Assembly (NCBI GenBank): GCA_002633005.1
Contig: NMRA01000133.1
Location: 490,627-554,626, forward strand
Reading direction: 5' to 3'
Length of the DNA: 64,000 bases
Source of the DNA: Phoronis australis
Lineage: Eukaryota > Animalia > Phoronida
Under the pieces are notes generated by a model that was not told the DNA's origin, ran no database searches, and saw only the letters and a list, made by a program, of their open reading frames with translations. Position numbers and translations under genes: made by a program. Shown in pieces: positions 4,518 to 34,500 of this stretch. Positions within the stretch are counted from its first letter, which is position 1, and each line of letters opens with the position of its first letter.

Positions 4518-7500
4518 CTGCAAAACAAGATGGAGATTAAACTTTTATTTAGTCACTAGGAAGGTCATTGAGCAGACAATATTACTTTTCTTACAGTGAA
4601 TCAGCTTGGATGATATTTTAGCACAAAACGTGTCAGTGACAAACCCGAGAAGATACTCTGGCTTTAATGAAACAAACTTATGTTAATCAAAACAAAGTTA
4701 AAGCAGCAACACGGTTCTATGTGTTAGAATTGTTAGAGCCAACATGGCGCTATGTGTTAGGATTGTTAGAGCCAACATGGCGCTATGTGTTATCATTGTT
4801 AGAGCCAACATGGTTCTATGTGTTAGCATCATTAGAGCCAACATGGCGCTATGTGTTAGCATTGTTAGAGCCAACATGGCGCTATGTGTTAGCATCGTTT
4901 GAGCCAACATGGTTCTATGTGTTAGCATTGCTAGATCCAACAAAGAGATTCCGGACACCCCTGCTGAAGATGAATAGCGCTCGAACTAAACCCATGGCAC
5001 TAAAACGTTTTTACACCAAAGAAGACCGCTCCAACCAACAACTTCAAAGATGAGTGAAACCTGTCACAATGCAGGCAAACTTACTTTGTATCTAGTTGAA
5101 TCAAGTTTGTATCGACAGGCACATTGTCATCAGGGTTACTAGTGGCCACCACACTAGCTGGCCGACTTGGAGGGGGTGACTCTGGTGGCTTAGGATGGGT
5201 CAGCGTGAACGGCAACTCCACAGAGAGGTCACTGCAAAAACAACAACAGACAAACATTACAACCTTATATTTGCTTTAAATCCAGTCAGTCATAGGGTTC
5301 TTCCTCCAATTATGATTGATGAAAGGAGCCACAATCTCTTTTAAGTCACTCGTAAGTTTTTATCCTCTAAGACCCTACTTAAACCTTACTTAGAGCTTAC
5401 TTAAAGAAGTGATGAACCTGCCTACTGCCTAACAAGACTGATCTCGACTCGTTCCTTATACGAATTTGAAGTGGAAGAAATGACAAACAATTCCAACTCG
5501 AGACCACGCGCAGCGCATAAAATGACCACTCTGGTCACTCCAACTTATTGACCCTATCTCAAGCAGTATGGATGACAAAAGTTGGACGTAACGTGCCCGT
5601 AATTTGAGAACCAGGTTGATGCTCATTATTCAGTGGAGAAAACTGGTTCTCAAAATTCAGCAATATATATCCGACCATTACCGGAATGAACTGTTAGTTC
5701 TACCAAAGGCCAGAAAGCACTCCTCATCTGTGTACGGAACAAGTTAAGATCGATCTTAAAATGTTAAGTAAATGAACACCAGAAGGCAATCTTGACAGAT
5801 ACCAGGTTTGTAGCTGCACAATATACCCCCCATTCTCCTGCCATTGTCAATATTTCTAATATGACACATACAGTAACAAAACCCACATTTTGAATGAGAC
5901 TGCGTATTGCCATGATTTTGGTCAGAACTTATTTCTGAGATAGGGAAGAGCTGACAATTGTTGATACTAGCCACTAAAGTTGAACGTTAATTGGCTTTCA
6001 TTTAAAAGCTTTTAATTAGAGGACCTCCATGTGACAAGTAGTCTTGTGAAATAAAAAATACGACAAATTTGTCCTTTCACACTTCTTCCGGTTCCATGAA
6101 TGTGTGGACAGCTAATCATCTGTTTTAGATGTTTTTATTTCTCTCTTGACTAACAAGCTTCTTGGTGACCCCCAGTATAATAGATACAACAACTACCATG
6201 ACCCGTGGAGAGGCTAAGTAGATACACTATCTTGTTCGATATCTTCAGATTTCAAGATGGCCACCCAACTACCACCCGAAGCGGATATGATTACAAAAGA
6301 ACTCATGTGCGACATGCTATCCAGGTACGAGAAAACACACGACATCGAGGTTGAACATCTTCAAGTGTCAAGAATGACTAAACCGGGTGAGTAACAAACT
6401 TCTTCACATGATAATTTCTGTCGCTCGTTACTCGAATCACACAACTGGAAATCATCAATTTGTTTTCATCACAACTGTTAATGTCACTACGTCTTTCGAA
6501 AACAATTTACAATATTTTAAATTTGAATTTTGCAGCTAAAATAACCCATTGAGATTACAAATAAAAATATCCATAAAACAGTTCTACAGCAAATCACTTC
6601 TTATATGGCACATTACAAAAAATTATATAAAAGGCAAATTCATGCAAATAGCCAACTGTTGCTAATTCATTTGACTAAATTTTAGGAAACTATTTTCACT
6701 TTATTTAGGTTAAACAATTTATGAAATGGATTTCAAGCACGTTAGTTAAGTTGAATTTGTGCCCTAATACATCTCATTCACCACAACTCCAAACATTTTC
6801 AATGTTAACTGAATGTAATAAGAATCCATTTTTGGAGGTGCAGTACCACCTAAAATGGCTGCACTGTAGTAAGCGACAGCAAACTACTGCATTATGGGTA
6901 CTCTCTCAACTGCTGCCACACAGGCAGGAAGTTACAAAGTATTTGTTTTTGTGATAACTTTCCACTGACGAAGCTCATTATGTGTTCAAAATTGTTGAAC
7001 GCAAAGTGACAAGTTATCTTTAATGTTTTTTTTTGTAATTTAAGGTGAGCACATTGGAAGCTGCATACTGCGAGTGTGCGTAACCACTAAGTCATTGGAC
7101 GGTGTCAGCAAACAGCATCACTTGGTCGTTAAGACTAACTTCACTGACCCAGTCCAAGCACAGAGAGTGACAAATAACCTAATGTTTGTCAAGGAGATCC
7201 AAACCTTTAAAGAGCTCCTCCCTGCTGCAAACAGCCGGATTCGGGAGATAACTGCAGGGCAAGATGGGGTCACTTACGCAGTGTCAGTACCAGAGATGGT
7301 TGGTTACAGACTGGGAGAGGGGCATACTAGCATGTTGGCACTGAAGGACCTCAGTACAGAGGGTTACAAGAAGGTGAATGTATCGGAGAGTCTAGACATA
7401 TGTCACTGCAAGCAAGCCATGAAAGAAGTGGCTGCCTTCCACGCCATTGGCTACCTGCTGAAAGATGGGGTCACAAGGGAGGCGTTTCTGACGAGGTATC

Positions 7501-10500
7501 CTTATCTGGGCGTCTTCAACTACACCAGCCAAGAGTTCATTGCACCTTTCATGGACATTATCCGACTCACTTCAGACAGTCTTGTGGAGTTCATTCTGAC
7601 CTCTGACCTTAGTGAGGACCTCAAGCAGCAGGCTGGCAAACTACGTCTGCACGACCCTGTTGCAGAGCCCAAAAGCTGCAGTGCTCCAGTAGAACCGTTT
7701 GCAACCATATGCCTCTTGGACTTCTCGACAAGGAACATGCTGTTCAGATATGACGATCAAGGGGTGCCAGTTGGGGTCAAACTTCTCGACTTCCAGACTG
7801 TATATTATGGGTCGCCAACATTCGATTTATCAATGTTTCTCTATACAGCCTGTTTTGACGGCATCAAGCAGGACATATTGGACGACTTGCTGAGCACGTA
7901 CTACAATGCTCTAGCGGATAATTTGAAAAAATTGAGAGTGCCACTGAAGTTCACTTATCAGGAGTTCTTCAAAGAGTTCATGAGAACACGACTATCCGCT
8001 CTGTGGTACGGACTGATGACACCTCCCTTCTTTCTCATAATGGGTGGATTTTTGGCTAGAGATGAAGTGAAAGATCCCACCTCAGGTGGACCAGCTAAAC
8101 AATTGGCTAAAGCATTGAGTAGGAGTGTCTATGCGCCATTTCTGTTAGACACATACAGGCTGCTGTCAACATATAACTTTTCAGTGACCTTACAACCTCT
8201 TTAGAAGCCAAAGGATGCATGGGAGATAACTTTACTTTAAAACGATTCTAAATCATTCTTTTTACTATTACGATCGATTTTAATTGTTTGGAATCGAAAG
8301 TAGACAAGATTTTACCAATTTTTACAAAGTTTTGTACTTTTTTGAAAACATTGTCTTTTTAAAGCTGTACTTCACCCAGTCTAGTTGGCTAAAAACAAAG
8401 ATGCAACTTGGCCTTTTATTCAAATAAAATTTGTCTCATGACATTCCATACCATGATGGGATTCTATTTCTGATAACAACGAGAACAATGAAACCATCAA
8501 CGACTTGAGCAAACGCATAATAAGTTAGAGTTCATTGGGGTTGGCCTACTCTAAAACCGTGAATTTGAAAATGTCACTGAAATACATTGCCTGTGAATTT
8601 GAAAATGGTCACTGAAATACATTGCCTGTGACTCCAGTTCCCGGCTCATTTCGGAACAATTCAAGATCAGGCGAGCGTGTTGATGCTTTTAAAATCGTAT
8701 TCAACAAAACTGGGTCCAGCAAGAGGCTTTTGACATTCCCAAGAATACCTCGATATCTTTTTTATTGTTTTATTCTACAACGGCAGTGGGTGCACCCGGT
8801 GGTGAATCAAGTGCGTGAGATATGGACGAAATGGCTGTACACTTTCTACATCAAGGTACTGTCTCTCTGGTTCCAAAAGGGATCTTTATTCAACATTTTT
8901 ATCATTTAAATGTAACCCAGTAATATACATAGTCTCACCTCTTACGTTTTTGTGAAATTTAGTTGTTAAGCTAATGATTCATTTTGCCAGGACTTTCCCC
9001 AGTTTCCCCCCCACAAAGTATAGAATCAAGAGCCTAGTCAGTAAATGTTCGGAATATAGTCCCATGGGCCCCACCTCTGCAACCACAATTGAAAATTTCT
9101 ATGGTTTGTAAAGTGTTCCATTCTCAACAGAGTCAACAAGTGTCAAGTAAAATGAGAAACAGGACCAAGTGTATTTCAGCACATTTTTGCCTTAAACAGT
9201 ACAACATACAACAAACTTTAGGTACCATGGCATGGTAACCTCTCTTAACTATACAAGTTGGTCCTCATTACCCGTCCAAGTCACATTTTCCCTCTATATG
9301 TCAAGGCTTGGAATTTTCAGCGGAAACACAGATTTCCGCTTTTTTCTTTTATTCCCTCTGCGTATTTCCGTTATATTTCGGATTTGCCATAAAATTATCG
9401 CGGCAAATTAGTTTCTCACCATGGTGTTGCCAATGACTCGAAAAGCGGAAACTGCTCTTTATGTTTCGGAGGAACGAAAATAGTAATTGCGAATCACAGG
9501 TGCTCGAAATTTCCTGATGACTCGTAACCATATATCAGAAATATGTCTTCTTAGTGATGAGTGATGGCAGTGGAAATCGAGGAACACATAAATTCAAGCG
9601 CCTGTGCCTGGGATACCGTGGTTCATCAATGGCGTCTGCATTTGGTACAAAATCGCGGTGACAAATAGTGCGATTCTGTGGTCAAAAATGCGAGAAGTAG
9701 ACAGAATATTTCGTGGAAAAAGTGGATAAAAGAAACGGTCAATGTCTTCACAAACAACATAAGTCAAGGTTTGTGCTCTGTAAACTCTGAGAGAGGAACA
9801 ATTACGGAGTGCGTGGCCGAGTCGCCTTGGACAAAGTTGGAGTCAGAGGACCGACTGAAAACGATAAAACACTAGAAATAACGGTTCCTGAAAGGAAATC
9901 CAACCGTAACACGTTATTCGTTGGACTGGAATCGTGAGATGTGAGTGATGTATGTCCAAGCTTGGGGTATTAGTCCAATTTTCACTATCCTTATTTATTA
10001 TCTAAATTATCAACCTGTTTTAATTGTATCTTTGTTACATGTATTTAATTATTATTTTACTACTTTATTGTATTATATTACTGTTTTATATTTTGTTGTT
10101 GAGGGTCCTCTTGGAAAGCAGTGCTTTCAATGAAAAGGCCACCCTCATTTTAAATGTTACAATAAACAAATGAAAAAATAAAATTAGAAACATGCAAGGC
10201 AATGACCAGTGGCTGGTTGCATGAAACAGTCCCAAATAGGGACCCAACTAAGGTCCCTAAGTCTTTTTGCGTATTTGTGTCTTTATGGACTCACAGATGC
10301 AATATTTTTCTATCATTTCATCCTCATTATGAGCTCCTCTTTGATTACTGACATTTTCTAACAATTGAACTAAAAACTGAGCCCAGAGTTCATTGAAAAT
10401 AAATAGGGACCCAGCCCTTAAATTGGGGGTGTTGCATGAAAAGATCCCGAAAGATTTTCGATAATATTGACAATTCAACGTAGAATTCACTCTTGACTTG

Positions 10501-13500
10501 TATCAAAGTACAAAATTGACTTAGTAGTGAAACTAAAACAATTCAAGAAAGGGCAATCGATGTTTTCACAAGTCCAAAAATACGCAGTAGATTTAGGGAA
10601 CTTAGTCGAGTCCCTATTTGGGACTGTTTCATGCAACCGGGCAAAGGAGACCAGACATTCTAGAAAGTCTGATTCTTTGTTGCTGACGTACCTGGTGCCC
10701 AGAAGTCCCAGAATCAAACGAACTTTGACTTTGTACTGCACCACAATGCCAAGATTTTCTTTCTGACTAGGATCTTGGATTCTGAAATGACAGCATACCA
10801 CATGTGAACAGCATACGACCTGTGAACAGCACTATGTAGATGGTGAGATTCCAGCCAATATTAGGAAACATTTTAAACATGGCCACTTTACCCATGAAAG
10901 AAGAGACACGTTACTGATACTTTCCTTTAATAAATTTTGCAGCAAGAACGGATTGTAATATCAAATTTATCGATACAATTTTAAAATAAGGTTCCATAAA
11001 AATGGCTTAGGGTTTCATTCTGGGGCTTGGCTATTCAAAACCCATAGGGGAGTAATAAAATAATCATCTTCTCAGCCAGGACTACAAACCCTCTTTTAAT
11101 CTGTGTTTAGTTAGTCCAAGTGGGACACTTATATGAGGGCTGTTCCAGTAAAATCCATGTGGGAGGGGGGGACGGCAGTAGAAATAAAAATTCATGGGTG
11201 GTGGTCTTCAGAAAAAAACTCAAATTATGGGTGGTCATTCCTGTAAGAAGTGATGCATTAAAAATGGGTGGTATTTTTTGATCTGTTAACCTTGACAGGT
11301 TGGTTAATTCAGCCAACACATCTCCAAAGAAATCAAAACTCAAAAAATGCGATTGGCATATATCCCAACTTATCCCAATACAAAAAAGCCCATATTGCCA
11401 GTGAACAGAGTGCAATATGTTCACTAAGCCATTAATCAAGTCATGGGCAACTTGATTTGAACCAAGTGCTTGTCTGCAGTCCTATTGAATTGAAAAGTTA
11501 TGCAACACTAAACTGGTGTTAACACATATAAGAAAATTGATGATTTTTAAATAAAAAGTATGAGGAGTAAGATAAACAAGTTCCAATATTCACTTGACAT
11601 AGAAGTATAAAAGAGTTTGTGGAGACAGTTTGAGATTCATAGATCCTTATAATTGAAAAAATGTTCATTGAAATTATAGACACATGGTGAACAGAGACAC
11701 CTGGTGGCTGCCAAAAGTATTGTTCACAGGCTACTTTAATTTTTGACAATATTGGACAAGACAACTAGTTCTTGTCTGTCAATCATCTAAGTTCTTAACA
11801 GGTCCTCCTGGAGGCAATTTGTTTGCAAGTGTTGGATTTTATATTTTAACCTATTAAAAATAATTAAAAAATTATGGGTCATGGGTTGGAGAAATAAATG
11901 AAAAATATGGGCGGTGGGTACGAAATAAAAGTGCCTTCCCCCCCCCTCCCATACAGATTTTGCTGGAACAGCCCTGACTAAGAGCAGGTTTCACAAAGAA
12001 CTACTTTCACTGATCTTGCATGTCAATTTCAAAAGGCCTATTGTGTATGAAAGATGTCCATGACTTACAACCACAGGCAAAATGCTAATCCTCTATCTGA
12101 ACAAGTTACCCCACCAAAACCCAAAATGGTTTTCACGTTTTACACAAGTGTTACCATTGATTGAACGACATCTCTCTTGGCATACTCAGCAGGCGCATCC
12201 CACTAAGCCCATCACAACAGATCCAACCATGAAATGGAACAGTCGTTTAAACTGAGATTTTCAACTAATTCTTTTAAATACTGAATAACTAGTTACTATT
12301 TCTCCTTACATGGTGGACGATGCCAGACAGGTGTCCTCGTGCTTCAACTTCCCGTCCAAGGCTAGCCCCCTCTTGTCTCTGTTCTTCTCCAATAGAGGCG
12401 TCAACTCGTAAACTTTACAGAAGCCTACTTGATTAGCATGAATGGAAAACCCGTCCCTGAGAGTAGTAACGTCAAGATGAGGTAGGAGTAATTAATAGAG
12501 GACACAAGTGGAAGAGCAAACCATTCTCCATAAAATTAACAGAATAAGACCGTTGTTTGATACACATGCATGAATATTTGTCAAGTAAGTGGAATCTGCA
12601 GGGGGTCCGGTTAGCAATACATCTTGTTGCACAGTTGTAGTTTAAGTAGAACTGATGTACATTGAAGGCTTTTAAGGCCAGGACAACACGGAATTCTGAC
12701 AAAGTATGTAACTACAATGATAATCAAAGAGTAACAGCTCCCTGTAACTTCTTACACTTCTAGAGATATTCTTGTGTTAAATTGTGACTTGGGTACTGAA
12801 ACCTCGCACTTGAACGACATAAAAATCAACCTTACACAACAACAACTTGTTTACAAAATGTAGACGAAATAGGAAAAAAAGTGAACACTATTTGAGTGAA
12901 GTGTGCGTGTGGATGTTGCTTCCAATAAAGGTTCATGTGGCAGTATACCTAGCACAGACTAAATTGTAACATACCATTTATATTCGTTAAAGAAATAAAC
13001 CAACACCCAAAAGAAAATCAAAGCTAATGAAATGGTATCCACAAAAACTTCGTTCCCTTTCGTTTGTGTCGAAGCTGTATGAAAGATTGGTAGCCTAAAA
13101 TGGCTGCGAAACAATCTTTCAGCAGTGTGACATTGCACGATTGTAGTGCTGACATGCAACAGAATATAAGGCAAGAGCAATGCAAAGTGATGGTAGACCG
13201 TCAACAGCAAAGGTTCCAGGAGTCAATTTTACAAGTCAACCCATCAAATTGATCAACTTTGAAATAACTGTCGGACAGAGCACACCTTGTTGAGGAACAA
13301 CAGAGATGCTGCTGAGATAGTCACATACAACGGAAAAACAGAGTGTTGGTCCATTCCTATCTTATACCCTTCAAAGGTAAGGCAATTTGAAGCTACTATA
13401 AAAATTACATGTAAACAAGGGCTTGAGTACTTAATACGTTAAAACTCTGTGTATCACTTTCTAACATTTCATCACACTAGGTCAAAGTGTTTTGACAAAA

Positions 13501-16500
13501 TCCAACAGTAAAAACAAGAGTAAAATGATCAACACCATGTGCGAAGACAGTTGTCAAAAATGACTGGTGCTGAACTTACGTACTTTAACCATTTACCTTT
13601 AAGTGAAACTCAGTTAAAATCTGATACGTGATTTGAAAGATAATCAGCAGCTATGAAATGCTAACTCAAAACCAAACATGGGTAACAGGAAGTACTAAAT
13701 ACTGGATCTACCTGAACATAGCTATGGAATGCGTCAAGTATACTAACTATGTCAAGACATTATGTTAAGACACTTACACACTGAGTTACCCACAGACAAC
13801 AACTAACAGGATGAAATGGGTTACAGGAACTGTTTAGTCAGACCTGTGTGAAAGCTGGCTGATGGTGGCACATCCCTACCATAATCTTTGTGTTGAGGAA
13901 ATGAATAGATTTGGAAATATTGTCAAAACTTAACTACAGAGCACCATATGCACTATTCTCCACACTGCAGGAAGGTACTGTTCTTAAAATATTTTACTTT
14001 TTCACATCTTCACTATTATTTATGAAATTTTTATCTCAAAGGTGGTAAAAATAAATGTGAAATAATCTATATGAAACGGAACAACTCGGTTGCCGCACTC
14101 AAATATGTACCTAAAGTACATTATTTTTTTTGTATATAATAAATTAAGTCCAAAAAATCTGAATACTTCTTATACAAGAGCAATGTGTAGCATTGAAATG
14201 CGCCCACAACTGCAGTGCAAACAGTGTGCATCAAAGGGTGTTTATTAGAATAAAAACAGTCCACTAGATAATACAGAATACGGAAGGTGTCATTGTCTCT
14301 CGAATAGAAAGGTATTTGCTAAATATCATCAAAGACAGAGACGAACACGAAAAAAATGTCTTTAGGTGGCGAAGTTGGAGTCCAAATGGTTTCTAGGTGT
14401 CACAAAATTGCTTTTAAGCACTTTGAGAGATAACCACAAAAATGGACAACGGAACAAGTGAGATTTTGATCATATGTCCACAAAAACGTGTGGGCACATA
14501 ACACACCATTGCGCAATGTAAACGTTGTTCTGTTCCACTGAATTACACAGCAGACAAAACAGTTTACAAAATACTACAAATTAAAAACTTCTGATCAAAA
14601 ACACCATCTGTTATATATCACTAATTAGAAAAGGCTTACATCGGAGGCCAAGCTTGTTTTAAGCTACGAAGCAGCATAAATATATTCCAATGATAAGTTT
14701 CAGCATGATCACCAAAAACATGTGTTGCACAGACACATGTACAAAATAAAAGCAGTACGGCTAGAAACAGGATGAAGAAACAGGATGGAAATATGGAATG
14801 ACAAAATGCGTCGCTGATGAGAGAGACTCAATAGGAATGCATTATTGCAAACTGTTAACATAAACTTTAATTTAATGGTCGTGTTAAATACTTTAATATC
14901 TAAAGAAAAATGTACATGGCTATCAAACTAAGACACTCCATCGCTAGACTCCTATCTCTTGTTAAGACCTACTGAACAAAGCTTTCAACTATTGATTTTG
15001 TCTTCAGGCCCTTGGCAGTCAATGGCAGGGAGTAAATTTATTAGAACTATCTATCACCAACAGCTAAAACCAGAGTCTATTCTCTCAATAAACTGAAACT
15101 CACACACCAAAAAATTTTCATTTAATGAAAAGGGTTTTAGTCGCAGCCTAATATTTTAGACAATGCCCCTACCGTTGGAAATCGGGAATTTTTTCTGCAA
15201 TCTCTGTTGCCAAAGTTGCACGTTCAAGCCTTTTAACAAGGCAGCAGGGCAAAGGCAGTAAACAAGTAGTTTTGCCAACTTACTCGGAGTCACACTCGGC
15301 CACCGTACCTTTGTACTGTGCGGTTGTGAAGAGAGAGATATCAGCAAACTGGCGAACTGGATTAAGAAGAGAAACCAACAGTTTAAACGTACATGACAAC
15401 AAGCAGTAACCACATGACCCCTGTGTCCCCCTGCAAACTGTCCCGCCTCCGTGATACATCGGGCCAACACATCACTCCCACGTACAGAGGGCTCACAGAG
15501 AGGGAGAAAAGATTTAACCGCAGTTTATTCTCACAAGTCTGTGTTGAGCTGTAGCGTGTAGAGTTCATGCATACAACATGTCTTTTTGTGGAGATGTACA
15601 GTAATAAAGGCTCCCTAATTTCCTGTTACGCAATCCACGATTTCCAAGCAAACTTGATTTATAATTGCAGAGAAATATATTAAGTTAATGGGCTTCAAAA
15701 TAAGGATGTGGTTTCAAATGGAAACCTATTATTCCTTCTATCAAATTTGCGAGAATGTCACCATTATTCTGCAAACAGGAATTTACGCAGTACTTGGAAA
15801 CTAGGGAGAGTTTGCAGAGAAACAATACAAGGAACCCAGACACCGTGACAAGAGACATGGCAACCAGAGCATGCTGAGAACCAGTGAACTGTATACAGCC
15901 AGCACATACTCCACTGAACATATACACAAGGCAAGCAGGAGAAGGGGTAGTCTACCCACAGGCCACTAGTACTCTACCCCTGACAACAGAGGGCATGTGT
16001 GGTCAGTGACACTTACTCAGATTCCCTCTCCTCCACCGGGCACTTGTAGGTGGCGCTACTAAACAGTATGATGTCGGCTGCCTGGATGACTAATAAAGGG
16101 CCAATGGTTGGTAAAGATTTCATTGGAAAACAGCAGGCACAGCACAGGTATAACTATTGGCAGTTCCAAGCAACACCACGTGAATATGTATCAATACACT
16201 ACAAACCATGTCATGGTTACATACAAACATTGTCATGGTTACACAAAATGTTGAGACTGCTATAGGGTAACGCACTTCAGAAAGTGAAAACTGGACACAT
16301 TCACAGTTAAGGAGAAAAATAATGCAGTGGAGAGACTAAAAGTATTCTGGCCAAATCACAAAAGAGATGGGCGCTATCTCCAGGGCATTCTTCTTACTAT
16401 GCTTGTTCCCACAAACAGGATTCTTTGTTTGCAATATAAAAATGCTGTGAGAGAAAAAAATGTTGGTGGTTCTTGAGAAAAAGCACTTGTCCGCCATGTA

Positions 16501-19500
16501 GTGAAATGGAAACTATCAAGGAGAACACGCGCGTGGTTAGTGGAGGAAAAAAATTGATTACACTGAAATCTGGCCATTATATTACATGGCTTGTCCAATA
16601 CTGTTTTCGGGGTGGCTATAACATCTGATCAATGTCCATGGTATTTTACAAAGTCTGACCTATGGTCTTAGAAGTTCAGCCACAGAATTTATAAGCCAAC
16701 CCAATGAACTGTTTTTCAAACATGGCAGTGCATCATGTGATAATTTGAACATTGCCAATTGGCTGATACGAGTTGATAATCTTCGTGCTGAACAGTCACA
16801 CATTTCAAGTAACGGGGAATTATGAGGCACTCCAACACAGTGATTGTAATAATACGACCATTGGAGAGGTATCAACCCGTCACCACATTGAATTAAGAAA
16901 AATCGGGAGGGCTGCCAACCTATTTGACACAATTTAACCTCCACGCTAAAAATCTGCATTTTGCAAGTGAAAATGAGTGTGAAATCTAATATTTTTTGAA
17001 ACTTTTAAATTTCATTCATAACATAATATTCCCAAAACAAGAAAGCTCAGTTTCAAATTGCCTTCAACTAAAAGGGGTCATTACAAACCAGGCTCATCAC
17101 ATCAATGTTTTGCAGTTGGCATGGTCAGGCACAGTGGACCATAGCAGAGCAAATCGCGATATCCCGTGATCCACACCAATGTTGTCAGCCATGACATGCA
17201 GCGAATTCTTTTGAATGCTTTCTACGAGTAATCTAATTCCTAGGGGTGTTTATCTCCAAATATCAGCTCTCGGCATTCTGACATGACTTTTGTAACAGAT
17301 GACATCCCACAATGCACGGCTATTAAGTGACGTTTTCATTCACAAACTTTAACTGCCCAATCACGAAAGAGAAAGCCCAAAATGCAAATTACTTTCACAC
17401 TCTCTCGTACTCAGTACAAATTTTATAGGTGGGATTTCGCGCTCTTGATCTTGAATATTTTCGTCATCTACTGGATTTTTCTGCATCATTCTTTGCTGCT
17501 CTCATACTTCAAAATATTGACACATTTAAAAATATCTTTAATTTTTAGCCGATAGTCTGAGTCAAGAAAATTTCAAAAACACGCATGTAGCATCTTAAGA
17601 CCACACAAGTGCAGAGAGTCCTGGTCAATCTATAACAGTTGGCAGCCCTGATTTGATATAAAGTAAATACATTTATAAGAAAGTCAGGAAATGAGAGCAA
17701 AATGCAACTTCTGAAGGGAAAATAGGTTGATGGGATATTTTCGCAAATACCAAAACTTCAAATGCCTTTGATGACTGGAGAAGACAACAAGAAACTGTAG
17801 TGATGGCTCACAACATATGTTGTGGAGTTGTATTCGTATTTCACAGCATTGGTTCTAGAGGTGTCTATTTTGTCAGTTATCACACAGGGACACTAAAGCA
17901 TCCTGTAAACAAGGAACTACCACGTCTATGCAGTTTTTAACTTACTGTCACTATTTGCTGCAGGATAGCATAGCACAGGCACAATACATTGTACGTCCAC
18001 CAAACACAGCTACTTGTTGGCTGACTTCTCAATGTGACATCATGGTGTTCAGTACTGAAAACTGTTGTAAGCAACCTCATTTCCTCCACCAGTAATTTTG
18101 CTTCAATGGTCTCCAGTCATCGTAAGTCATTTAAATCCAGGATTTGCCCAAAAGAACCGTACTTCTTGTTTTCATTCGTCCATAAAATGTAAACAACTTC
18201 CTGACCACCCGAAAACGGACACCAAAGTCAAATTAAAATTCACAGCAGCTACACTTTCCAAAAGTATTTAAATGAGATCCTGATAAATAATACACAACAC
18301 ATACGATATAACCGCACCACAGGTAAATACCGCTACCTATCAACATACCTGATATCTTGATTTTTTTAATGGTTTTAGTTGTGTTGTTGTCCACTGTCAC
18401 ATTCACGTTTATCTTTTCTCCATGGTAGTATTTCTGCAGTTACAACAGATGGAGGTGAATAACAAAGCATTACAACGTTAAATAATGCAAAGTGAGGCTG
18501 GTCATGAATTTCCAAGAAAATGATGGAACACTAATTACTAAACAATTAACAGAACGGTAGAGCTCTCAGCTCAGTAATTATGCACTAATTAAGCATTTTA
18601 ATACTATGAACCACTCAAGGATACAGTCAAGGTGTACCAGAAACACGAGAACACTTTCTGTCGAAAAACCAATGGCAGTCAAAATGCACCTAGTTTAGAC
18701 AGTCAAATGCAAGTTGATAACATTTTGCTGCAGACCTGCTGACACTCGCCACACCAAGTTGCAATTTTGTAACCTGAAGTTACCCATCAACTTTTTCATG
18801 ATTTTCATTGAGCTTCGTGATTTCTGAGGTTTTTCATGATGAGCAAGCAGCATGTAGGCTCAGTCAAGCTTCAGTCAGTCCACAATACAATGTGAAAAGG
18901 GCCATTTTGAGAAACCATACAAATCATATGAACCATTCCTTACCTCCTTGTCTAGAGAGGCCTCCAGTTTCAGCTTGCCAGGGCTCATCATGAACTCCTT
19001 GGTGGCCTCCGACATGGGTTGGGGTGCTGCTTCTGTGGGGGCATAGGTCAGCTTACGAATGGCCAGGCGCACAGAGTTCCTAACAGAGAAAGACAAAGAC
19101 GAGCCTCAAATCATATATGCATGCACGCCTGTTACATTCAAGGGCCAGATGTTACCAAGAAAATTCAGAATGACAAAATAGATATAAACACAAAACGTAT
19201 GGAGAGTGTTGTAGATGAAGTAATATCCCACGAGACATTCTGTGTATCGACCGAGATCTCATACGTGGAATAATGTTGACCTGGATATAACTTCATCTAC
19301 GCCATTCGAGGTACGTTTTGTATTTGTCCCATACGCTTCAAATTCTGAAGTTTCTTTCATTTTTTCTCCAAATTTTTAAATAGCTCACCCTGACTGTTCA
19401 CATGGCGGATCACATCCTATATGTATGTACTTGCACGTTATGATACAAGTTTTCTCTAGTAAAAGAAAGAGTTTCAAATGTAACGATTAATTACTTGAAA

Positions 19501-22500
19501 AGAGATAACAAAGACGACGGTAATTGTGCATTGAACTTGTAACATTTCCTGCAAAATAATTAAATATCAGCAGTATTTAACATTGCGTTACCGAGGAATC
19601 GGCACCTGACATTTAAATATTTAGCAAATATGATAAAGAAGTGTCATTAACAGTTTTTACCAGATGTTATGTTTGAGAAATGATTGCATACTGAGTGTTA
19701 TTTATACTGCTGCAATTTTATTACTTTGAACTATTGAACTATGTTGAGAAAGTTTGATGATCGAGTCGGCTACGGATGTTGAGTTAACATTGAAGTACTT
19801 TTTGAACTTTCCATGTCAAGAGGTCACAATTAAACTAGTCAAAGTAGTGCACTGGGGAAAACAATATCGCATGACCGTATCGCATTCGACTTATTCAACG
19901 CGTATGGGATAAGAAAGGTAATCCAGCTACCCAGTTCTAACTGTTAATATCATTTTTATTAGCATGTTTCTCATATGTCTATTCACCTGTTCAGTCACTT
20001 TAACACAACGTGTTCCTGCTCCCTGTCATCAGCAGGTTGGCAGATTAATATCCTCAACAAAGAGGAAGCTAGTACAGATACTCTTCGATGCTTTTCTCAC
20101 TGACATTGAAACTACTTAATTTTCAGTAACTGGAAACCAGTGTTGATATTAGACCTGCGTGCTGACGCACACAGCTGTAACACAGTTTCTCAATTGTTTT
20201 GATGCATAGCGCTTGTNTTCCAAAAGTCCGTAAAGAGTCTATCCAAATATCTAACGCGGCTAGTCATGGCGTCGCGTTGAAGCGTAAAATCAGGATCTGT
20301 AATTTCATCAATCTCTACAAACTGTCGAGGTAAAGTTGACGTTATACGTCCATGGATGAGGTGTGATGGAGTGAGTGGTACTGGATCCTTGTATTTAAGG
20401 TCAGCTAATTCAAAGGCACTTCACTTCAAACGTGACGGTTAAAATAATATATTTTAAATACCCATGCATCAACATTGTTGAAAAACGTTGTTTTGGTTCC
20501 ACGTTTTGGGGTGAAACGCTTCATTTTTTGGTTTATTTAATACACCACCTTAGCGTTCTAAATTACATGTTGTGATAAAACCATGCGCAGAATACAGTTC
20601 ATTGTTTACTGAAACACTAAGATTCATTCTTGCCAATTTATTCCAGTTTGAAGTTTGTGATTTGACCTTATTAGCATTGTGTGGAGGTTTGACTACCAGG
20701 CACAGTTGAGATCGCAAACTTTCGCAATGGCACAATTTATCGTAATCCTCAAATTGCGAGTCAGTGGGGACTTCTGCAGCACAATATTCTATCATACTGC
20801 CAAAGTCTGTAAGGCCTTGAAGTACAAATCTTTGTGGTCTTGGGGTATTGATAGTTCTACTCCCAACGGCTGAGGGTGTGGGGAAACTGGCGCAACCAGA
20901 GGGACAAGGATAATTGAGACAAGTGTGAAGGTTGACAGAATGACGAGCAAATTGGCGGAAACTGCCATGTTGGAAGAACTTTTCAGTGAAAAGAATTTCA
21001 ATGCATCAACAAAAATTATACCAGTTTGTGCTTCAAAGGCATTACTAAACTGTAACAGTTTGAGGGTTAAGACAATTTGTACAATTACATCAACCAAAAA
21101 CTGTCACAACAAAAAATTACAAACAGTCTGTGTTTCAAAGTCATTTTGGGCTTGGAGGCGATAACTTGTCTTCATATTGCCATAGAACTTTACAAATCAA
21201 AGGTGTGCTTCACAAACAACAGGTCTTTTGAAATTGATGTGCAAGGTCAGTAAAAGTAGTTCTTTGTGATCTGTACTCTGTAAGTAAACACAGTTTAACA
21301 AAGGGTTTATGATCCTGGCGGAGGAGATAACTGTTTTATTAACCCTCTAGGTTTTGAATAGCCAAGCCTGGAATGGCTCTGTCAAAACTGTTCTAATGAG
21401 AAATTGACAACAGTCTGTGGTCTTAAAATGCAGTAATAATATATGTGTAGTCAGCACCATCTGTACACAGTTGTCAGAATGTATGTGATGTCTTACCTTT
21501 TGTGAGGCTTATTCAACTCATCAGGTACATAAGTCTTCAACTCATAATCCACTCCACATGGCTGTAAACACAATTAAGTAGTTTAGTTAACTTGTCTCAA
21601 TAGTTTTATAAATTGCAGAAGCGCGACTGAAACACGACTGTACTTTCTGTTTGATATACTCTCGCTCCTACTCTCTTTACCATTTTCTGGTGTTTACCGC
21701 CCACTGGCTCTCTTCCGCTGCTTGTGGGCTTCTTAGCGTGCGTAACATTCACACCCTCTGTTTGTATGCCCTACTGTCACTGTTTATTTCACTTCAATCG
21801 TGTTCACTTTACCAAGTGCCAGATGATCAAACACAGAAATATAGCTACAGTAAAAATTTCTGAATTTGGGACAAAAATAATTTCTAAAATTGACATTAAA
21901 AACCAGACGATTGCCGCACAAATAAAAAAGTTCAAGTTCAACCAACGTTTCGTCTATTCATTAGACATCATCAAGATCATATTTAAAAAGGACAGCAAAT
22001 GCCAACATACAGCTCAGGTAACATCCATAGAGTGAAGTGAGAGATACATAGAATATAGTCAGTAGCTGGTCATCCCAATAGTTGCAGGGTCACTGAGCTC
22101 TGCATGTTGTTCAGAGAATCAGTAGCATGCTGGTTCTGAATGGCCAATGACTCTTTAATGTACAATAATTCTTTATTAGATTCTCTGCAGATGAACTTTT
22201 ATTTGTGCGGCGATCATCCGGTTTTTAATCTTACTGTGGCCAAAAACTGATTTTAATTAAAATGAACATATTTCCAGTCTGCCATATCATTGTAAATGGT
22301 CAAAATTTTACCAAATGTTATTTGGTAATAACCACGCCAAACACATCGGCCAAAAGCAAAGTAAATTTCCTGACAACTTATTGCTGTAGTTGAGAAACTC
22401 GACAAAATTAATTTTCACGGTCTACCATATTGTGTCCTAAGATATTTCAACTTGCTTGTTTGTAATGTCTATTGGCAATCTATTTCAGAATGCACACCGG

Positions 22501-25500
22501 AAAACTGGGAACCGTACAGAGAATATATAAGTGAGTGTACATCACGCTGTCCAACACGAAGTGCAGTCGTGTTTTCAATCACGTTTGTACTACTGAATGG
22601 CTGGAACCTAACTATAGAAGTCACAGACAGCAAGAGTCTCAACAGCACACTGTCATTATTCTAAAACTGTTTTCACTGTCATTGGATACCTTTGTTACCA
22701 CCTCTAAAGTGTACTTACCCCTACTATTCATATCACCACCAATAAACCCGGCCCCATCGATTAACAAACTTTTGATTCAGATCACTTACAGCTATAAAAT
22801 TGGTACTACCTTGTTCCTTACTCGTACTAGAGGCAAAGTGGGGAAGTGCTAACAATTCTATTATTGGTCAAGATCACGCACGATATGTTGAATTGTCACG
22901 GCGTGTCACTGCGCGACGAACATGGTCTCACGCACTACCCAACTGTCTGTTCTTCAATATCCCAAAAATCATTCCACATTTGACTATGAAAAAATTTTAA
23001 GATGGAAAATGGCCTTAAACTAAAGTTATTTTTGACGACAGAAAGGCGTGTTCATTAACCCATGAATTTCTCTCCACTTAGATCTTGTAAACTGTGGATA
23101 AGTCAAGATAAATGCTTGGCTTAACAAAGGCATTTCTACAGACTATTTCAAGGGACAAACACAATGCCTGACTGGACATAACAAGTCCCTTGTTACAGTT
23201 ATTGTGTTTACTCTGTGAAATGAAACAGAGAAACAACTGATTCCCCTTCACTAACCATGGTCGCCCTGACATAATGCTTTCTAGCACTTTCTGGAGTTAA
23301 CTCTTAATTGTTGTAGATTGTACACCAATGATGACTACAATAATCTGGCGAAACTAGGGCACCTGTGTTTACACTTGAACTCTGTCAGTCCATTACACAT
23401 CCAATGATCATATACCTGACACTGGTAATGAAGCGTTCTATTGATATGCTGGCCAGACGTTTATCTTATTGCCATCACCAATTTTTGTGTCTTGCTGATG
23501 AACAAGGTATCTATTACCATTCAAATGCCTTGTGGGTAATGTTTATAAGAAAGCAGATGTGTTTGATCAGAAGACAGGACATCTGATCAGAAAAAGACCA
23601 GTTGCTTAAAACAAACAGATGTTCCATCTGCCATCTTATGAGTAATTACCAAAGCACATATGTGCAAAATGGGTAACTTGCTAGCCAATCGAGTCATTGC
23701 AATGTAGGCTTGTCATAGTAAGCAGGTAGATCTGTCATCTTGAGGTCAGATGTCATGGAGACAGAACAGACTTCAGATGAGCATTTACAAGTGAATTTAG
23801 ACAGCAAATGAGACATCTGATCTGCCTTCTTTCTGATCAGACGGCATGTAAACATGGTATCAGCAATGTTAAAACTGTTGAAGCTGAGTATAACAAAACA
23901 AGAACACGTGACACCTGCAGTAGTAAGGAAATTGTCCACCTTTGTGAAGTCCTTGTACATTTCATCTAATAACTTTTCAACTGTTCGTTTTCCACTCGTA
24001 CAAATATATATCTTCTGAATCCACGATGACTGAAATTTTTTGAGCAATTTAAATCTAACTGGCTATCAGGTTTAAAAGTGAGGCAAGACAGCTAGGAAAA
24101 GTGTGATTCAGTTTAGTGCGCAATTCACTTGGTGTAAAACCTCTCTGCCTATAAACAGTCCACGCAGTGCCACTCACCTTGCCAGTGTCCCCTGGTGCTG
24201 GCTGAAGTGTGACAGAGGCTGGTGAGTTAGGGGGTAACTGAAACCATTTAAAGAACACACCCATGACAACATTTATATTCCATTTCTCCTGATCTGAATG
24301 ACTTGAGGGCCCTCTTGGAAAGCAGTGCTATCACTGAAGAGGTCACCCTCATTTTAAATATCACAATAACAAATAAATAAATAAATAAATAAACTTTCAA
24401 TCATTATTTATACTAGTGTTGAGTAACTAAATGCGTAATGCTTCGCCTTGTTTGTGAATTTCATATAACTGTAATACCATACTTAAGTTGCCAAGAGTCA
24501 TTTCTGGAATTATTCGGTTTACACTTTTCAGATCCTCCCCAAAATGAAAGGAAACGGACGTTTCATAGTCTCTGATAACGTGGAGTAAAGGAACGCAGAG
24601 TGTGATCTGAAACACATGCAAATCTCCAAATCAACAATGTCTCTGAGTAAGCGAAATCCATTTTCCCCACCCGGAATCAGTCAAATTTTATCACAATTCT
24701 TAACAGGTGCGTCGTCTCACCTGGAAAAAGAAAGGATAAGCATTGGGTCCAAGCTTCTTGATGAGTCGCTCCTGAAGTCGGGTCAAAGGTCGCTTGTTTT
24801 CCTCCTCCACTGGGTAAACCTGCATCGAGGCCAGGAACAAGTCCTTCCTGAAGGTAAGGCCGAGAACATCCAGGTCCTCACGGCCGTAGCGGAACGCGGC
24901 CAGCACATGGGCAAACACCTTGCGACCTTTCAGGTATTCAGGGTCAGCTAAGACCACGCCATCTGGAATCACAGCAGGAGTCTCTGTTATATGTCTAGTT
25001 TAAATCATTCCAAAAGTTCAGAATTAAAAGATTTTAGGCTTCTACTGAATCAATGATTAATAAACCATTAAGCCATTTTGAAAGTAATTAACTGAAAAGG
25101 AATACCTTATGGAAATGGAAATAGCCATTAGGGTGTGCAAAGGTAATACTTATTTGAGTTCTTCACAAACTCTGCAGAGAACTACTGCTTCTTACCACCC
25201 ACAACCACAACACAGTCTCGCCTTTCATAAAAAACAACACACTTTGAAAATAATTGGCAGACAATGAAAACTTTGTTGAAACTAAGGCGCATGAGATCGA
25301 CAGATAAAATTAGTTAGTGTCAACCATACTTACCCCATGCCTTGGTGTTAAATTTCACAATCATGTCAAGACATGTCCAAAAGTATTATTATACAAAGGG
25401 AATTTGTCAAGAAGTAAAATAGCTCACTGGGGTGTCCAAGTAGTTGAGTGAATCTGAAAATCCCAGTTTTATCAAACGTGTGGTCGCTAAAATGTTTGTT

Positions 25501-28500
25501 GGCACATTATGCCTTATGTTCGTTGGCACATTACTGTAAACGCAACAATGCATTTTTGAGAGAGCAAAAGGTTGCAACAGATCTTGACTTGTCAATTTTC
25601 ACGAGTCATGTGATTGAGTTATGTGCTAACTGAAATCAAAGATACCACCGTCTCAAGTAAGACCAGACTTACACGAACCTTTAACTACAATGAGCCCCTG
25701 GAACGTGAACTCTGTCAAATACTTAAAAAATTCCATAAAACCAGTGAAGGTGTTTTGAATACAACCAATTGGGAAAGTTGAAGTTAGTTAGATTCGTCTG
25801 AAAATCAATGGTTCTGGCACCAACTAACCACATACGTTTGAGTCAAATTTCAAGATTTGTAAAGCGTTTTGACATAAGTGGCTACTAGATACACCAAAAA
25901 GACACCAATATTGTTTCAGAATTACTACTTAGAAATAAATGTTGATGAAATACCAAGCAACCACTAAGTCCAAACACATCTTGTAAATTCAGATTTGTAA
26001 CACTAGTTTTTGGAGTATAAAAGATACTAGACAAAGAACCTCAAACTGTGTATCCCTGAATCTATTCACATGTAACAGACTGATGCTGAGAGCTCACTTA
26101 ACAGAAATGTTGGGTCATATAGTTTAGAGTTATTCTGATCACTGTGTTGTCATTACCCCGATTACCAGAGCTACTCATGCATTGTGATGTGTTTTGGTTG
26201 CATTGCCGGCCAGTGACATTGCTTCCCGATGACAGTTTTATGTCAGTGAAATAAAAAAACCCCATTGACTACTTGGATCATGAATGGCGTCTCATTTTTC
26301 ATTTCCAGATTTGTAACAGTTACAGCTGCCCAACGGAAATAAGCCGTACTCAGTGACCTCTGTTGGTGACCTTGGTGAGATGACTGTATGCAACACATGA
26401 CGCAATACAAACGTTCAGTGAAAACTTGTTCTTTCCATGAAGTTTAGCCATGCACCTCAGACTGTAGTTAACAGTTGCATTGCCATGGCAACAGCTATAC
26501 ACTGTAGATAGTGAAATTACTTGTACTAATATTGATTATAAAATATATTGCCTGATCCACAACTTTACAGCACGGCATATTAATGTCACCTTCACTTAAC
26601 AAAAGAACTAATCATGAACGGGGCTTCGTTATTAATAAATGGTTCGCAACAACTTAACTTAGATCTGAATATTTTTCTAATAGTCACAATGTTCACTTTC
26701 ATTTACGATTATAGCAAACAAAAATTTGAATTACTTATCAGTCTTATCGATATAGCCTCTTTGCGTTTTTGTGTTTATGTGCATTTTGTAGTCCGTTTAT
26801 TTGTAATTAGATTGTTCAATATCCTATGCATTACTGGAGAAATCGTCTTTTGTAATTTTGATATCTGTCAGTAATGATCCTCTATATGTTTATTGTTATC
26901 ATAATGTTAATCTGCCTGCATATGATATCTTCGATATGTGTGCAGTATTTGTATCACTTCTTTTATTATTCTTAAGATGAAATAAAAGTTAATAAAAAAA
27001 ACCCACGGCCCTCAACAGTTTTAAATATACGTGACCTTGAACTAGTATGAACTAGAACTAGCATGAGCTGGAACTAGCGTGACCTAGAACTAACGTTACC
27101 TAGAACTAACGTTACTTAGAACTAATGTTACCTAGAACTAGCGTGACCTAGAATTAAAGTTACCTAGAACTAATGTTATCTAGAACTAACGTTAGCTAGA
27201 ACTAACATGACCTAGCAGCATGACTCGTAACTACCACATTGTCAACTTTCCAACAAAAGTTGACACTTGTTTGCGTATTTATGGCAGACTTGTGAAGTTG
27301 TCATCTTGATATGCAAATGACACCATCACATGACTGAAGCTTGACTGTATTCCATGGAAGTTAGTTTCTTGTGAAAAAAAGGAGTTCATTCCCACAGTTA
27401 ATTGGGAAATATAGCCATGTGCTGCAAGGAGCACATGATCAAACTAGCGCTACTTGAGACAATTTAACATTTACGTAATGTGCCCCAGATCGACACAGAG
27501 CAAACCAAGTCGTCATGACCTTTTACAGGATATATTCAAGCTGTGGTCAACAAACCAAGAACTGAGTGGGCGGGGCGGTCACACCTGAAGGAAAGCATGT
27601 CACGTGGCCACTGAGTGAGGAAAAATACAGATACATCATGGAGTTTTGTCAAGTAGTAAAATTGGGTGTTGCAAAAATATTAGTGAAAAGGGGGCATTTA
27701 GACACTGAGGATGGACAAAGGACTTTATGGAGACACAGCACTTCTAAGTGGAACTGCCCCGCCAAAAGTGGTACGGTTGGGAAGTACGCAAAGGCCACAC
27801 TCGGATCTATCCTCTACCTAATATGGAAGAAGCCTCATCTACCATTAATGATGACAACCCATTAGCAAATGATAACATGCAATCACACAACAGAAATACG
27901 CCACCCGACTATTGATACACCAATCCTTCATCTAGTACCTTAAGAACCGCTCCAGGCATGAGCTTTGTGTTCTCCCAAAAGGCTTTCAGTAAGAGAGGCA
28001 AATTTTAGTACATAATTAATTTCAAGTCATCACTCCAACTGTTCTAAAACAGGATGTGATTAAAGGAGAGACATACCTAATTACTTGCTCCTCAGTCACA
28101 AGTATCTAATTAGCGTACTGAAAGCCTAATTGCTAGAATGTGAATGTACAAGAGCAACTTGTAAGAGATGTCAAGAATTCTGATCACAGGTGAACTTCAG
28201 CTATGTGAATATGTCATAAAAGGCCATATTCAGCTCATAGACATACGTGAATGAATCGTGATAACAAGACAATTCAGCTCACGTAAGTCTGTGAATGTAT
28301 TATGAGAAGATATATTCAGCTCATAGAAAGAAATACTTAGCTCATAGGCAGGGCAGAAAAGGAAATAAGCTTCCGTATTTACTTAGCTTTCGAGAGAAAA
28401 TGAGGACTTCTGACATCATAAAATAAAACGTCAATTTATTTTGCTTCACATGTTGATTGGATGATTATTGGAACAACTATAGGAAAGCAATTTCAAATAT

Positions 28501-31500: not shown

Positions 31501-34500
31501 CTCACAATGCAACAGTAGACACACCAACATGTCCCCCCTAGCGTTCCTTCAGCTATGAAAACACATCAAACGTGAAACAAATAGGCATACAAACATCTAA
31601 TCCAACAAAGTTCTCCGCACTCAGTCTATAGATCCGTTTCAACAATGTGCTTACACTCATTTGTGCCATGCTTTGTAACTTCGCTATTCCAAATAGTCAC
31701 AAAAAACTGGCTTTTATTAGAAATTTGTTACCCATTAGGTTTATCAAGCGACGTACCCCACAATTCAGTTGAAACGTATGGCACTGGCTATAGTAGAACA
31801 CTTGAAGTACTAGACAGTACAGTTGCAGTACACGACACTTTAAGGTGAAAACAAAAATGGCAAGAAGTGAGAGATCACTGAGAGAAATCTGTTTAAGACT
31901 TGGAAAGAAGAAATCAATAAAGTGCATGGATATCTGTGTGGAGTGTATGGATATCTGTGTGGAGTGTATGGATATCTGTGTGGAGTGTCCTTTATTTCAC
32001 GTCTTCTTTAAGTTTCCTGAACCAGCGAGATGGGTAAACAGTTGATTCCGGAAATCTGTAACTTCTGCAGACACAAATTTTCCACACAGGATGTATCGCT
32101 GGGCTTGTCAAGCCATACTAGAGTCGCTATGGTAACAATGGTAGGCATGAACTAACAGCATTTATTGGAACATCTAGACACATAGCAAAATTTTTTTTCT
32201 GTGGTTATGTTGGAATGCGTTCATTCCTATTTTATGTTATTTCAAACTTGGCTTTTTTGGTCTGCCGTCACTGTTTAAAAACTGCAATTCAAAGCGGAAT
32301 CAACAATTGGTCGAACTTCAAAACCATTTGCCCGGACTTCAAAACCAGCTGGCTGGACTGTAAAACCTAATGGCTGGTGTTCTACTTGGAACACGAATCA
32401 ATACCGTGAAAAACAGCAGTACTTACCAATAGGGTCCACATGGTCCAGATGATCAATAAAGTCCCTTTTGCCCAGGTAAGCTGTGATCTATAATCAGGTA
32501 AATTTAGTTAAAACTGCATTTCATCAGAGGTGAGGTGCTACAAACGAAGAAGGGTTTAAAATAAGTCTTGTAATTCACCTTGCCATGATAGAAGAAAATG
32601 TTTCAGAGTTTTTGGGGCTAGTCAACCTAAAGTTGTTAATTCAACAATGGCGCATGTATGCACTTTCTGTTACTTGAGTTTGCAGCTCATTTGGTAACAA
32701 TTCTAGATCGGATGAGCATGGTGATGTTTTTAGACCCCCCCCCCGAAGTGCTGTAGTTAAGAACTGACAGCTTCCTTAACAGCAGTGAAATGCTCCTTTA
32801 AAAAGACCATAGCAAGGGAACACACATGGGAACAGACATTTTCATGCAAAAATAAATACAAAATCTTTAGTGGTGTTACTACAGGAGTACACACGCACAC
32901 GCACACGCACACGCACACACACACACACACACGAGTTTCCAATTTAACAATGCCTCTTGTGATTTTATTTCTGTTTTCTTCCATATATTAAGGTGACAAG
33001 TTGGAAGATTCAAAAATGATTTTCGTGCAACAAAAGTTGAGACGTTTGGAAGACTGCGACTGTAGAGGAAAGATCCCCAGAACGAAAGAAAAATTTCTTA
33101 TCTTGAGAAGCAACAACAGCAAGATCGCTTAATAAAACTAGCGCTTCACAGAGCATGTCACAGGTACCAAATTTTTCCAACCACTTTAATCCAGCAGCCG
33201 CATTTGCAAATAGCGAACTAAAAAGCTGGTACATGAACACTAATACATGTCCTTTTTGAAGTCAAGTTGACACTTAAGCCAACAACAATTCAAGCTTTGT
33301 AGGAAAACGCACACCGAAAAACTGCTGTGTCCACAGTGTGGAGCCACAGTGTACCAGGAAATGATTAGTTTTTGACTAAAGAAACAGATTTTGTTTCTTT
33401 ATGCAGAGCAAATACAGAAAGACCAGGTAAGACAAAACGCCAATTTATTAATATCTGGAAATATTGACCTAAAATGAGTTGGACAATTTCAAGGAAGTGA
33501 TGACAGGCTGTTAATACCTGTTACTCAGAAAATCAATTTCCTAAACTTAGAGTTCTGTAAAAAGATTGAAGGAAACCTCCAAACACACCAATGAAATTAG
33601 CTTGTACGTTGCTGTCCTGGAGCATGTTTTACAAAAGGGCATACACCTGTTCTTAAAGCGTCGTAACTTGAATTTAGCTGGCACACAGTTCATTGAACGC
33701 ATTTAGGAAGGTGGTCTCTGAAGACGGCATTTAAGTTTAATTCAGTAACAACATTTTACTCTTATCCAAAATGCAACTTCACAATCCCAACAATGTGCCA
33801 ATGATAGTCTTAGTTATGACCAGGCAGACAAATTTCAATAAAACCAGCCCTTGCTGAAGACCTATTGCAAGACTGTCTAACCTAAAATTAAACAAATTTA
33901 CCTTTCCATTTGGACTGCTCTTCTTGAACACCCTGAAAAACAAATAAAGACAGGTTGCAAAACAAAAAACAATTATCAAAAGCAAAATTTGTCCGGTCTG
34001 TATCGAGGCATACTGGCTAAATACAGTAAGGGCAGACATTTATGGTCAGCAACAACTCCTTCCAAAGCCATAGTGTGCCCAATGTTCACACTTGGGCGAA
34101 CACGGTACCAGTCTAGCTATTAGGGGCTAAAATGCCATGTGGACAATACTTAATATGAACAATAACAACCTTTCTTTTCACCATTCATAATATTTAGCCC
34201 AAATTAGAGCAAGCATTTTCCTTGGGACGTATGAAGTCAGGTGGTTAGAATACAGATGTTTGGGAAAATGCCTTCAGTTTTCTGATTAAGTCTTGTTGGA
34301 GAAGAGGAGATGTTAGAACAAATGGTGAATTTCCAAGACAATTACCATTACGGTCTTTATACTTCACTCCGAATACAAGTGACATCTGGTGTACACGGTC
34401 AGAAATGACAAATGGCACTGCCACAGAAAACTGAACCGACTGTTTCCTTCCGAAATTAGGTGAATTGCTGGCTAATTCAAAGGAACAGACCGAGACTATT

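Follow-up and report, generated by a model that had tools for sequence, protein, structure and literature searches.

Tandem exons 9a and 9b of a Phoronis australis beta-arrestin gene are a mutually exclusive pair

The beta-arrestin gene of the phoronid Phoronis australis carries two homologous copies of one short exon, which raises the question whether a single gene supplies this animal with two arrestins and, if so, what the second arrestin is for. The locus lies in a stretch of 64,000 nucleotides (contig NMRA01000133.1 of assembly GCA_002633005.1, positions 490,627 to 554,626 of the forward strand), here called the window, to which all coordinates refer. An initial annotation made from the sequence alone had described the copies, 9a and 9b, as homologous 73-nt exons preceded by AG, followed by a GTAAGT donor and identical in phase (1 in, 2 out), and its coordinates, splice sites and translations all matched.

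The exon pair and its use in RNA

The gene occupies the minus strand, where coding exons 2 to 13 run from 33932 to 4418 with AG and GT at every border (Table 1). Exon 1 was not located in the window, and the exon number 9 is therefore approximate. The encoded protein is of the beta-arrestin class, with a Pfam Arrestin_N domain in exon 4, beta-arrestins as its best matches, and motifs visible in the sequence that we take to be clathrin-box-like in exon 12 and an AP-2-binding-like tail in exon 13. Judged by exon 4, the best full-length relatives among 120 listed of 2054 are the beta-arrestins of Lingula (90%) and Mytilus (88%). In a quick tree, calculated from 47 rows with exon 9 left out, the Phoronis protein stays unplaced among lophotrochozoans, the nearest row being 84% identical.

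Table 1 Exons of the beta-arrestin gene and the intron between 9a and 9b, in the order of transcription
Feature	Position in the window	Strand	Length	Evidence	Remarks
Exon 2	33902..33932	-		sequence	first coding exon located
Exon 3	32427..32487	-		sequence	
Exon 4	24721..24962	-			Pfam Arrestin_N
Exon 5	24178..24237	-		sequence	
Exon 6	21497..21561	-		sequence, RNA	exon 6 to exon 7 junction in RNA
Exon 7	18944..19079	-		sequence, RNA	junctions in RNA
Exon 8	18349..18433	-	85 nt	sequence, RNA	upstream, common to both forms; encodes K232
Exon 9a	16017..16089	-	73 nt	sequence, RNA	alternative (minor) cassette
9a/9b intron	15357..16016	-	660 nt		
Exon 9b	15284..15356	-	73 nt	sequence, RNA	canonical (major) cassette
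Exon 10	12310..12456	-	147 nt	sequence, RNA	downstream, common to both forms
Exon 11	10692..10781	-		sequence, RNA	exon 10 to exon 11 junction in RNA
Exon 12	5085..5231	-		sequence	
Exon 13, coding part and stop codon	4418..4517	-		sequence	AATAAA at 3510

The two exons agree at 43 of 73 nucleotides (59%) and at 13 of 24 residues, 8 of these 13 common residues being written with different codons, and their flanks are unrelated to each other. The earlier remark that a protein pattern is common to both despite the divergence of their DNA is thus borne out. Across the gene 455 AG-started open frames of 24 codons were scored for their likeness to exon 9, and the two highest scores, 94 and 80, belong to the 9a/9b pair, followed by a score of 30. 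As only two of the 455 frames are exon-9-like, the pair is not a product of chance and there is no third copy among them. Exons 2 to 13 with either 9a or 9b alone form an open frame of 411 residues, from exon 2 to the stop in exon 13. Inclusion of both exons leads to a stop inside 9b, 57 nt ahead of its end, and omission of both to a stop in exon 10. The claim that the frame permits one exon only therefore stands as far as the premature stops are concerned, but the frame cannot itself force exclusive splicing, as the wrong combinations are by virtue of these stops predicted NMD targets only.

The RNA evidence comes from four runs (X1 to X4) of one organism in two studies, with tissue labels absent; about 18-19% of each raw run was read and the reads were mapped to positions 12270-18480. 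A joint was listed when it had three reads at two starts, or a contig. In X2, X3 and X4 the joint between exon 8 and 9b is covered by 30, 14 and 33 reads and that between 9b and exon 10 by 37, 19 and 51; the corresponding counts for 9a are 2, 2 and 8 on the side of exon 8 and 1, 2 and 0 on the side of exon 10. The contig run X1 contains a bubble with two paths of 130-nt contigs, one leading from exon 8 through 9b to exon 10 at a depth of 31.9 and the other through 9a at a depth of 14.9. The four junctions named at the outset (18349>16089, 16017>12456, 18349>15356 and 15284>12456) were all found, and further junctions join exon 6 to 7, 7 to 8 and 10 to 11. Exon 9a accounts for 15 of 199 junction reads in X2 to X4 (4-11% per run) and for about 32% by depth in X1, and is thus the minor form in RNA. 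Some of the reads joining exon 8 to 9a may be splicing intermediates, because the libraries show intronic coverage. Neither a joint from 9a to 9b (16017>15356) nor one from exon 8 to exon 10 reached the listing threshold in X1 to X4, at a sampling of 15 junction reads for 9a. Exons 9a and 9b are a real mutually exclusive pair, the basis of this exclusivity being the 15 junction reads for 9a and one contig bubble. Each exon is joined separately to exons 8 and 10, and the proposal of the initial annotation that one gene makes two arrestins is upheld.

The most likely mechanism of this exclusivity is a regulated choice by splicing factors combined with NMD of the wrong products. A cell-type splicing factor would select 9a, and NMD would clear the double-inclusion and empty products. 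Steric interference, which calls for a branch point of 9b no more than about 50 nt from the donor of 9a, was considered and rejected, as it is not expected with an intron of 660 nt and an AG-free zone of 62 nt before 9b. Incompatibility of U2 and U12 sites was likewise rejected, both donors being GTAAGT of the major class and both acceptors AG. For Dscam-type RNA pairing, the best duplexes of six target windows lay within or barely beyond the range of six shuffles each, and inverted repeats around the exon pair look chance-like.

The locus holds other features as well. The intron between exons 11 and 12 harbours an EcKL-like (ecdysteroid kinase) gene antisense to the arrestin, with two exons on the plus strand (6257-6386 and 7045-8204) that encode 429 residues and match Pfam EcKL at E 1.4e-47. 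Deep two-stranded reads with many variants mark dispersed intron repeats at about 10500-12035, 19200-19750 and 21250-22000. Short tandem repeat arrays lie at about 2560-2780, 4700-4940, 27040-27200 and 37560-37930, and two of them yield long spurious open frames.

The exchanged segment and its counterparts in other animals

Exon 9 corresponds to residues 235-259 of beta-arrestin-1, with both peptides aligning from residue 235, and lies within the 30-residue C-domain receptor-discriminator element, 25 residues of which it covers, R236 and K250 included. The receptor-discriminator elements comprise residues 45-86 and 233-262 of arrestin-2, and a swap of these elements reverses receptor preference, according to the accessible part of a review (PMC11173308). 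Positions 242, 245, 247, 248 and 249 are given as receptor-binding and 232, 236 and 250 as IP6-binding in the available sections of a survey (PMC5501109), and the C-loop is located in the receptor interface in an excerpt of another paper (PMC7913897). The triple replacement K232Q/R236Q/K250Q abolishes phosphoinositide binding and impairs internalisation as well as recruitment to some receptors, as stated in the accessible portion of a preprint (10.1101/2021.10.09.463790).

The two Phoronis isoforms are equal in length and differ at 11 residues, all of which lie in one hairpin. Compared with the canonical segment, 9a carries R236I, C242I, T246S and Q248T (beta-arrestin-1 numbering), and 9b keeps R236 and K250 and has the lineage-specific changes C242S, S245T and C251G. 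The phosphoinositide triad of K232, R236 and K250 is complete in the 9b form, whereas the 9a form loses one of the three lipid-binding residues, with I in place of R236, K250 kept and K232 contributed by the shared exon 8; the mammalian experiments concerned the triple mutant. C242 is lost from both Phoronis cassettes, and the changes of 9b fall at positions on which at least 90% of 53 distinct canonical segments agree. When the alternative Lingula isoform is modelled with AlphaFold2, the hairpin is retained (strands 232-243 and 249-259, pLDDT 76-91), though the test is weak, canonical rows having been part of the 45-row alignment behind the model. It is very likely that the swap alters receptor or lipid handling, and the loss of R236 would weaken the PIP2 dependence of the 9a form.

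The comparison with relatives covered protein records, from which the tandem exon order in those species was inferred. Predicted RefSeq isoforms that are equally long and have all their differences inside the exon-9 segment are found in Lingula anatina (X3 and X2, 11 differences), Tubulanus polymorphus (X2 and X1, 6 differences) and the chiton Liolophura sinensis (X4 and X3, 12 differences). The predicted RefSeq isoforms X2 and X3 of Lineus longissimus have 7 differences, again in the segment only, and X4 represents a third form with 19 differences from X3. In Argopecten irradians the canonical F1D8X1/ADY16711 and the alternative F1D8X2 differ in the 25-residue segment, at their two ends and at a few sites elsewhere; judged from these sequences, the pair is very probably the same splice switch at the cDNA level. 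With these brachiopod, nemertean and mollusc records, the swap is represented in three groups of phylum level besides Phoronis. Unpaired records of the alternative type stem from four chitons, Peronia, the annelid Dimorphilus and record P0205, with a partial one from Leptochiton, and further alternative-type segments occur in Trichinella, in a monogenean paralog and in the tapeworm Schistocephalus. An unused 9a that is decayed or absent in relatives, the outcome that would have spoken against the pair, is not what was found, since 9a reads are present and relatives have equivalents.

Both forms occur in 4 of 20 clusters among the matches listed. The cephalopod, other bivalve, gastropod, Owenia, hemichordate and sea-urchin clusters among those listed have the canonical segment only, which may reflect loss or missing annotation. 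A profile search with the alternative exon returned 52 matches, mostly canonical, with one new alternative segment (P0205), and cephalopod visual arrestins were not retrieved by it. It is highly probable that the exon swap is common to several spiralian phyla. The tails of the proteins vary as well: the AP-2-like tail is absent from the scallop and Peronia alternative forms (P0045, P0055, P0134 and P0140 are short-tail isoforms), the full tail is kept in the chiton alternative forms, and some scallop forms pair the canonical exon with a short tail. A simple acceptor scan downstream of exon 12 of the Phoronis gene found no alternative short last exon of the scallop type.

Several of the records have peculiarities of their own. 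One beta-arrestin cluster (P0378, P0434-P0445) has the alternative-type segment only, in 8 of 8 mappable members, and some of these read straight on from exon 8, as though the intron were missing. The Leptochiton record P0021 lacks 23 residues and has the 3' half of the alternative segment; the end of exon 8 is followed directly by mid-segment sequence, probably through an assembly or PCR jump. Beta-arrestin isoforms of Anoplophora (P0076/P0078) and Penaeus (P0022/P0023) differ right after exon 9, a pattern that suggests that in arthropods another exon, the one in the exon-10 position, is swapped separately. Nemertean, abalone, mussel and Owenia isoforms (P0015, P0126, P0026, P0252, P0032) carry short insertions, 1-5 residues long, where exons 9 and 10 meet, which point to a further microexon or an alternative splice site.

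The substitutions in 9a follow a pattern that recurs among the alternative segments. The set consisted of 282 proteins (redundant, with many isoforms), of which 247 could be mapped and 35 unmappable ones were left out; R236 is present in 228 of the mapped segments and missing from 19. At seventeen positions at least 90% of the 53 distinct canonical segments agree, and 9a alters exactly four of these positions (R236, C242, T246 and Q248) and keeps the other 13. Every one of the 10 distinct alternative segments has all four altered, the change at R236 being partly circular, as this residue defined the canonical and alternative sets. The canonical segments retain R236 in 228 of 228 cases, C242 in 227, and T246 and Q248 in 225 each. 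In 9a, Tubulanus, Lineus A and a Schistocephalus record the four signature positions are the only ones of the 17 that are altered. Under uniform chance a match of the four positions, with R236 left out, would have a probability of 1/560, a value that makes the match look stronger than it is, since exposed positions are freer to change. The signature speaks for either a single origin or a single selective pressure that acted repeatedly. The mean pairwise identity is 8.7 of 24 residues among the alternative segments and 21.0 of 24 among the canonical ones.

The role of the alternative form

The explanation that accounts best for these observations, with a probability of roughly 0.55, is that the exclusive choice between 9a and 9b provides what is likely a second arrestin, the 9a form, with another receptor preference and a weaker lipid-dependent internalisation, serving most likely opsins in photoreceptors. 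Among the purposes that 9a may have, a role directed at opsins is the likeliest one, and opsins would be the target receptors of its product. The link to photoreceptors is circumstantial. Two arrestins were reportedly obtained by Gomez et al. in 2011 from the retina of Argopecten irradians. The scallop retina has two beta-arrestins by which the photoresponse is deactivated, and a slug beta-arrestin moves into the rhabdomeres under light, both according to second-hand accounts in the available part of a paper (PMC7553075); the slug arrestin record has the canonical segment. The Leptochiton arrestin is expressed in r-opsin cells, with a probe that is not described as isoform-specific in the accessible text (PMC4689004).

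The visual arrestins themselves resemble 9a in part. All four signature positions are altered in one S-arrestin-like and one cone-arrestin-like protein. Squid visual arrestin shares I236 and T248 with 9a and keeps C242 and T246, which amounts to two of four, and it is matched by 9a and not by 9b, weakly (E 0.77); its top rank in the profile is inflated by lophotrochozoan flanks that the profile contained. The idea that squid visual arrestin has fixed exon 9a draws on one alignment, which is equivocal. Records P0305 and P0302 were tried as relatives of squid visual arrestin and rejected as not close. At the level of residues, a null comparison for eight vertebrate visual-type segments gave p values of 0.02-0.22, and by mean similarity none of the 8 stands nearer to the alternative segments than to the canonical consensus. 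In a leave-one-out test 9a itself reached p 0.29 and 7 of the 10 alternative segments fell below 0.05. At this level the vertebrate visual segments resemble the alternative ones weakly.

This weakness lends weight to a less probable alternative, by which the switch is equally real and old and 9a tunes the arrestin for receptors or cells outside vision, such as GPCRs that serve neuronal peptides or chemosensation, with a recruitment that depends less on PIP2; the likeness to visual arrestins would then be convergence at exposed positions. Such a role would suit the alternative-type segments of Trichinella and Schistocephalus, which are eyeless as adults, as well as the three forms of Lineus. 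The share of about 32% by depth in X1 is likewise high for a form confined to photoreceptors, unless the sample was rich in eyes. Against it stand the deposited molluscan alternative segments (F1D8X2, the four chitons, the Leptochiton part and Peronia), which in scallop and Leptochiton come with a context of photoreception.

A duplicate under relaxed selection, either as a partly redundant minor isoform or as a means to tune the dose of arrestin by unproductive splicing and NMD, is improbable. The low identity among alternative segments (8.7 against 21.0 of 24) shows that they evolve fast, and just 4-11% of the junction reads in X2 to X4 belong to 9a, but 9a keeps 13 of the 17 conserved positions while its synonymous sites have diverged, and identical positions, four in number, are altered across phyla. 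Unproductive splicing would fit run X4, where 8 reads enter 9a from exon 8 and 0 leave it for exon 10; it is at odds with the complete in-frame isoforms of five other species and with the full contig from exon 8 through 9a to exon 10 in X1. Nothing was found in favour of the view that 9a is an artefact of assembly or of allelic variation, or a pseudo-exon without any use; this view is refuted by the junctions of both exons with exons 8 and 10 in RNA of two studies, by the mere 59% identity of 9a and 9b with their unrelated flanks, and by the equivalent isoforms in other phyla.

The reading of 9a as part of a second, opsin-directed arrestin can be extended to a wider evolutionary proposal, which is doubtful. 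The exon pair might be an ancient spiralian switch that derives a visual-type arrestin from a single beta-arrestin gene through the receptor-discriminator/PIP2 hairpin and that has persisted for more than 500 million years in brachiopods, nemerteans, chitons, scallops and annelids. It might then have been the exon-level forerunner of the visual paralogs of coleoids and flatworms, with the alternative cassette fixed after gene duplication.

Comparison with known systems

The literature search, which reached few subscription journals, found no description of an exclusive exon pair at this position of an arrestin. The term 'mutually exclusive' does not occur in the main text or the two supplements of a survey of deuterostome arrestins (PMC5501109), and the accessible parts of six further papers (PMC5839723, PMC11556747, PMC9776813, PMC12857021, PMC10729476 and PMC7706725) do not mention the pair. 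A butterfly paper reports arrestin splicing, and exon 9 is not named in its available portion. The device of exclusive exons is well known, and the isoform sequences are already in public databases.

What the pair adds is a lineage with one gene and two arrestins, or three in Lineus, that are obtained by exchange of a segment nearly coincident with the 30-residue receptor-preference element known from laboratory chimeras. Animals with the swap likely gain a second specialised arrestin from a single gene and possibly use it for light receptors, and the swap may explain the shut-off of opsins in molluscs and worms that have no visual-arrestin gene. The isoforms are natural chimeras of a single element, which makes the role of this element and of the PIP2 site directly testable. 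Past studies with probes or antibodies common to both forms would have been unable to distinguish the isoforms.

Tandem-duplicated exclusive exons are known from a G-alpha subunit and from the selectivity filter of NALCN, where one functional element of a signalling protein is swapped. The Phoronis pair is like these in that its homologous exons lie side by side and agree in length and phase. The closest parallels in arrestins are the RefSeq isoforms of Lingula, Tubulanus, Lineus and Liolophura, in which automatic annotation has the segment swapped likewise, with three forms in Lineus as opposed to two in Phoronis. The retinal arrestins of Argopecten irradians also consist of one protein with a canonical and one with an alternative segment, but unlike the Phoronis isoforms they differ at the termini too.

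Visual arrestins (vertebrate SAG and ARR3, arthropod and coleoid) lack R236 as 9a does, and those of vertebrates alter all four signature positions. They are separate genes that arose by gene duplication, as stated in the available part of a paper (PMC7553075). In Phoronis, by comparison, a single exon of a general beta-arrestin contains the whole change, and the tail retains its clathrin- and AP-2-like motifs. The experimental chimeras of arrestin-1 and arrestin-2, as described in the accessible part of the review, had both residues 45-86 and 233-262 swapped (PMC11173308), whereas the Phoronis gene swaps the element of the C-domain only and shares that of the N-domain between its two forms.
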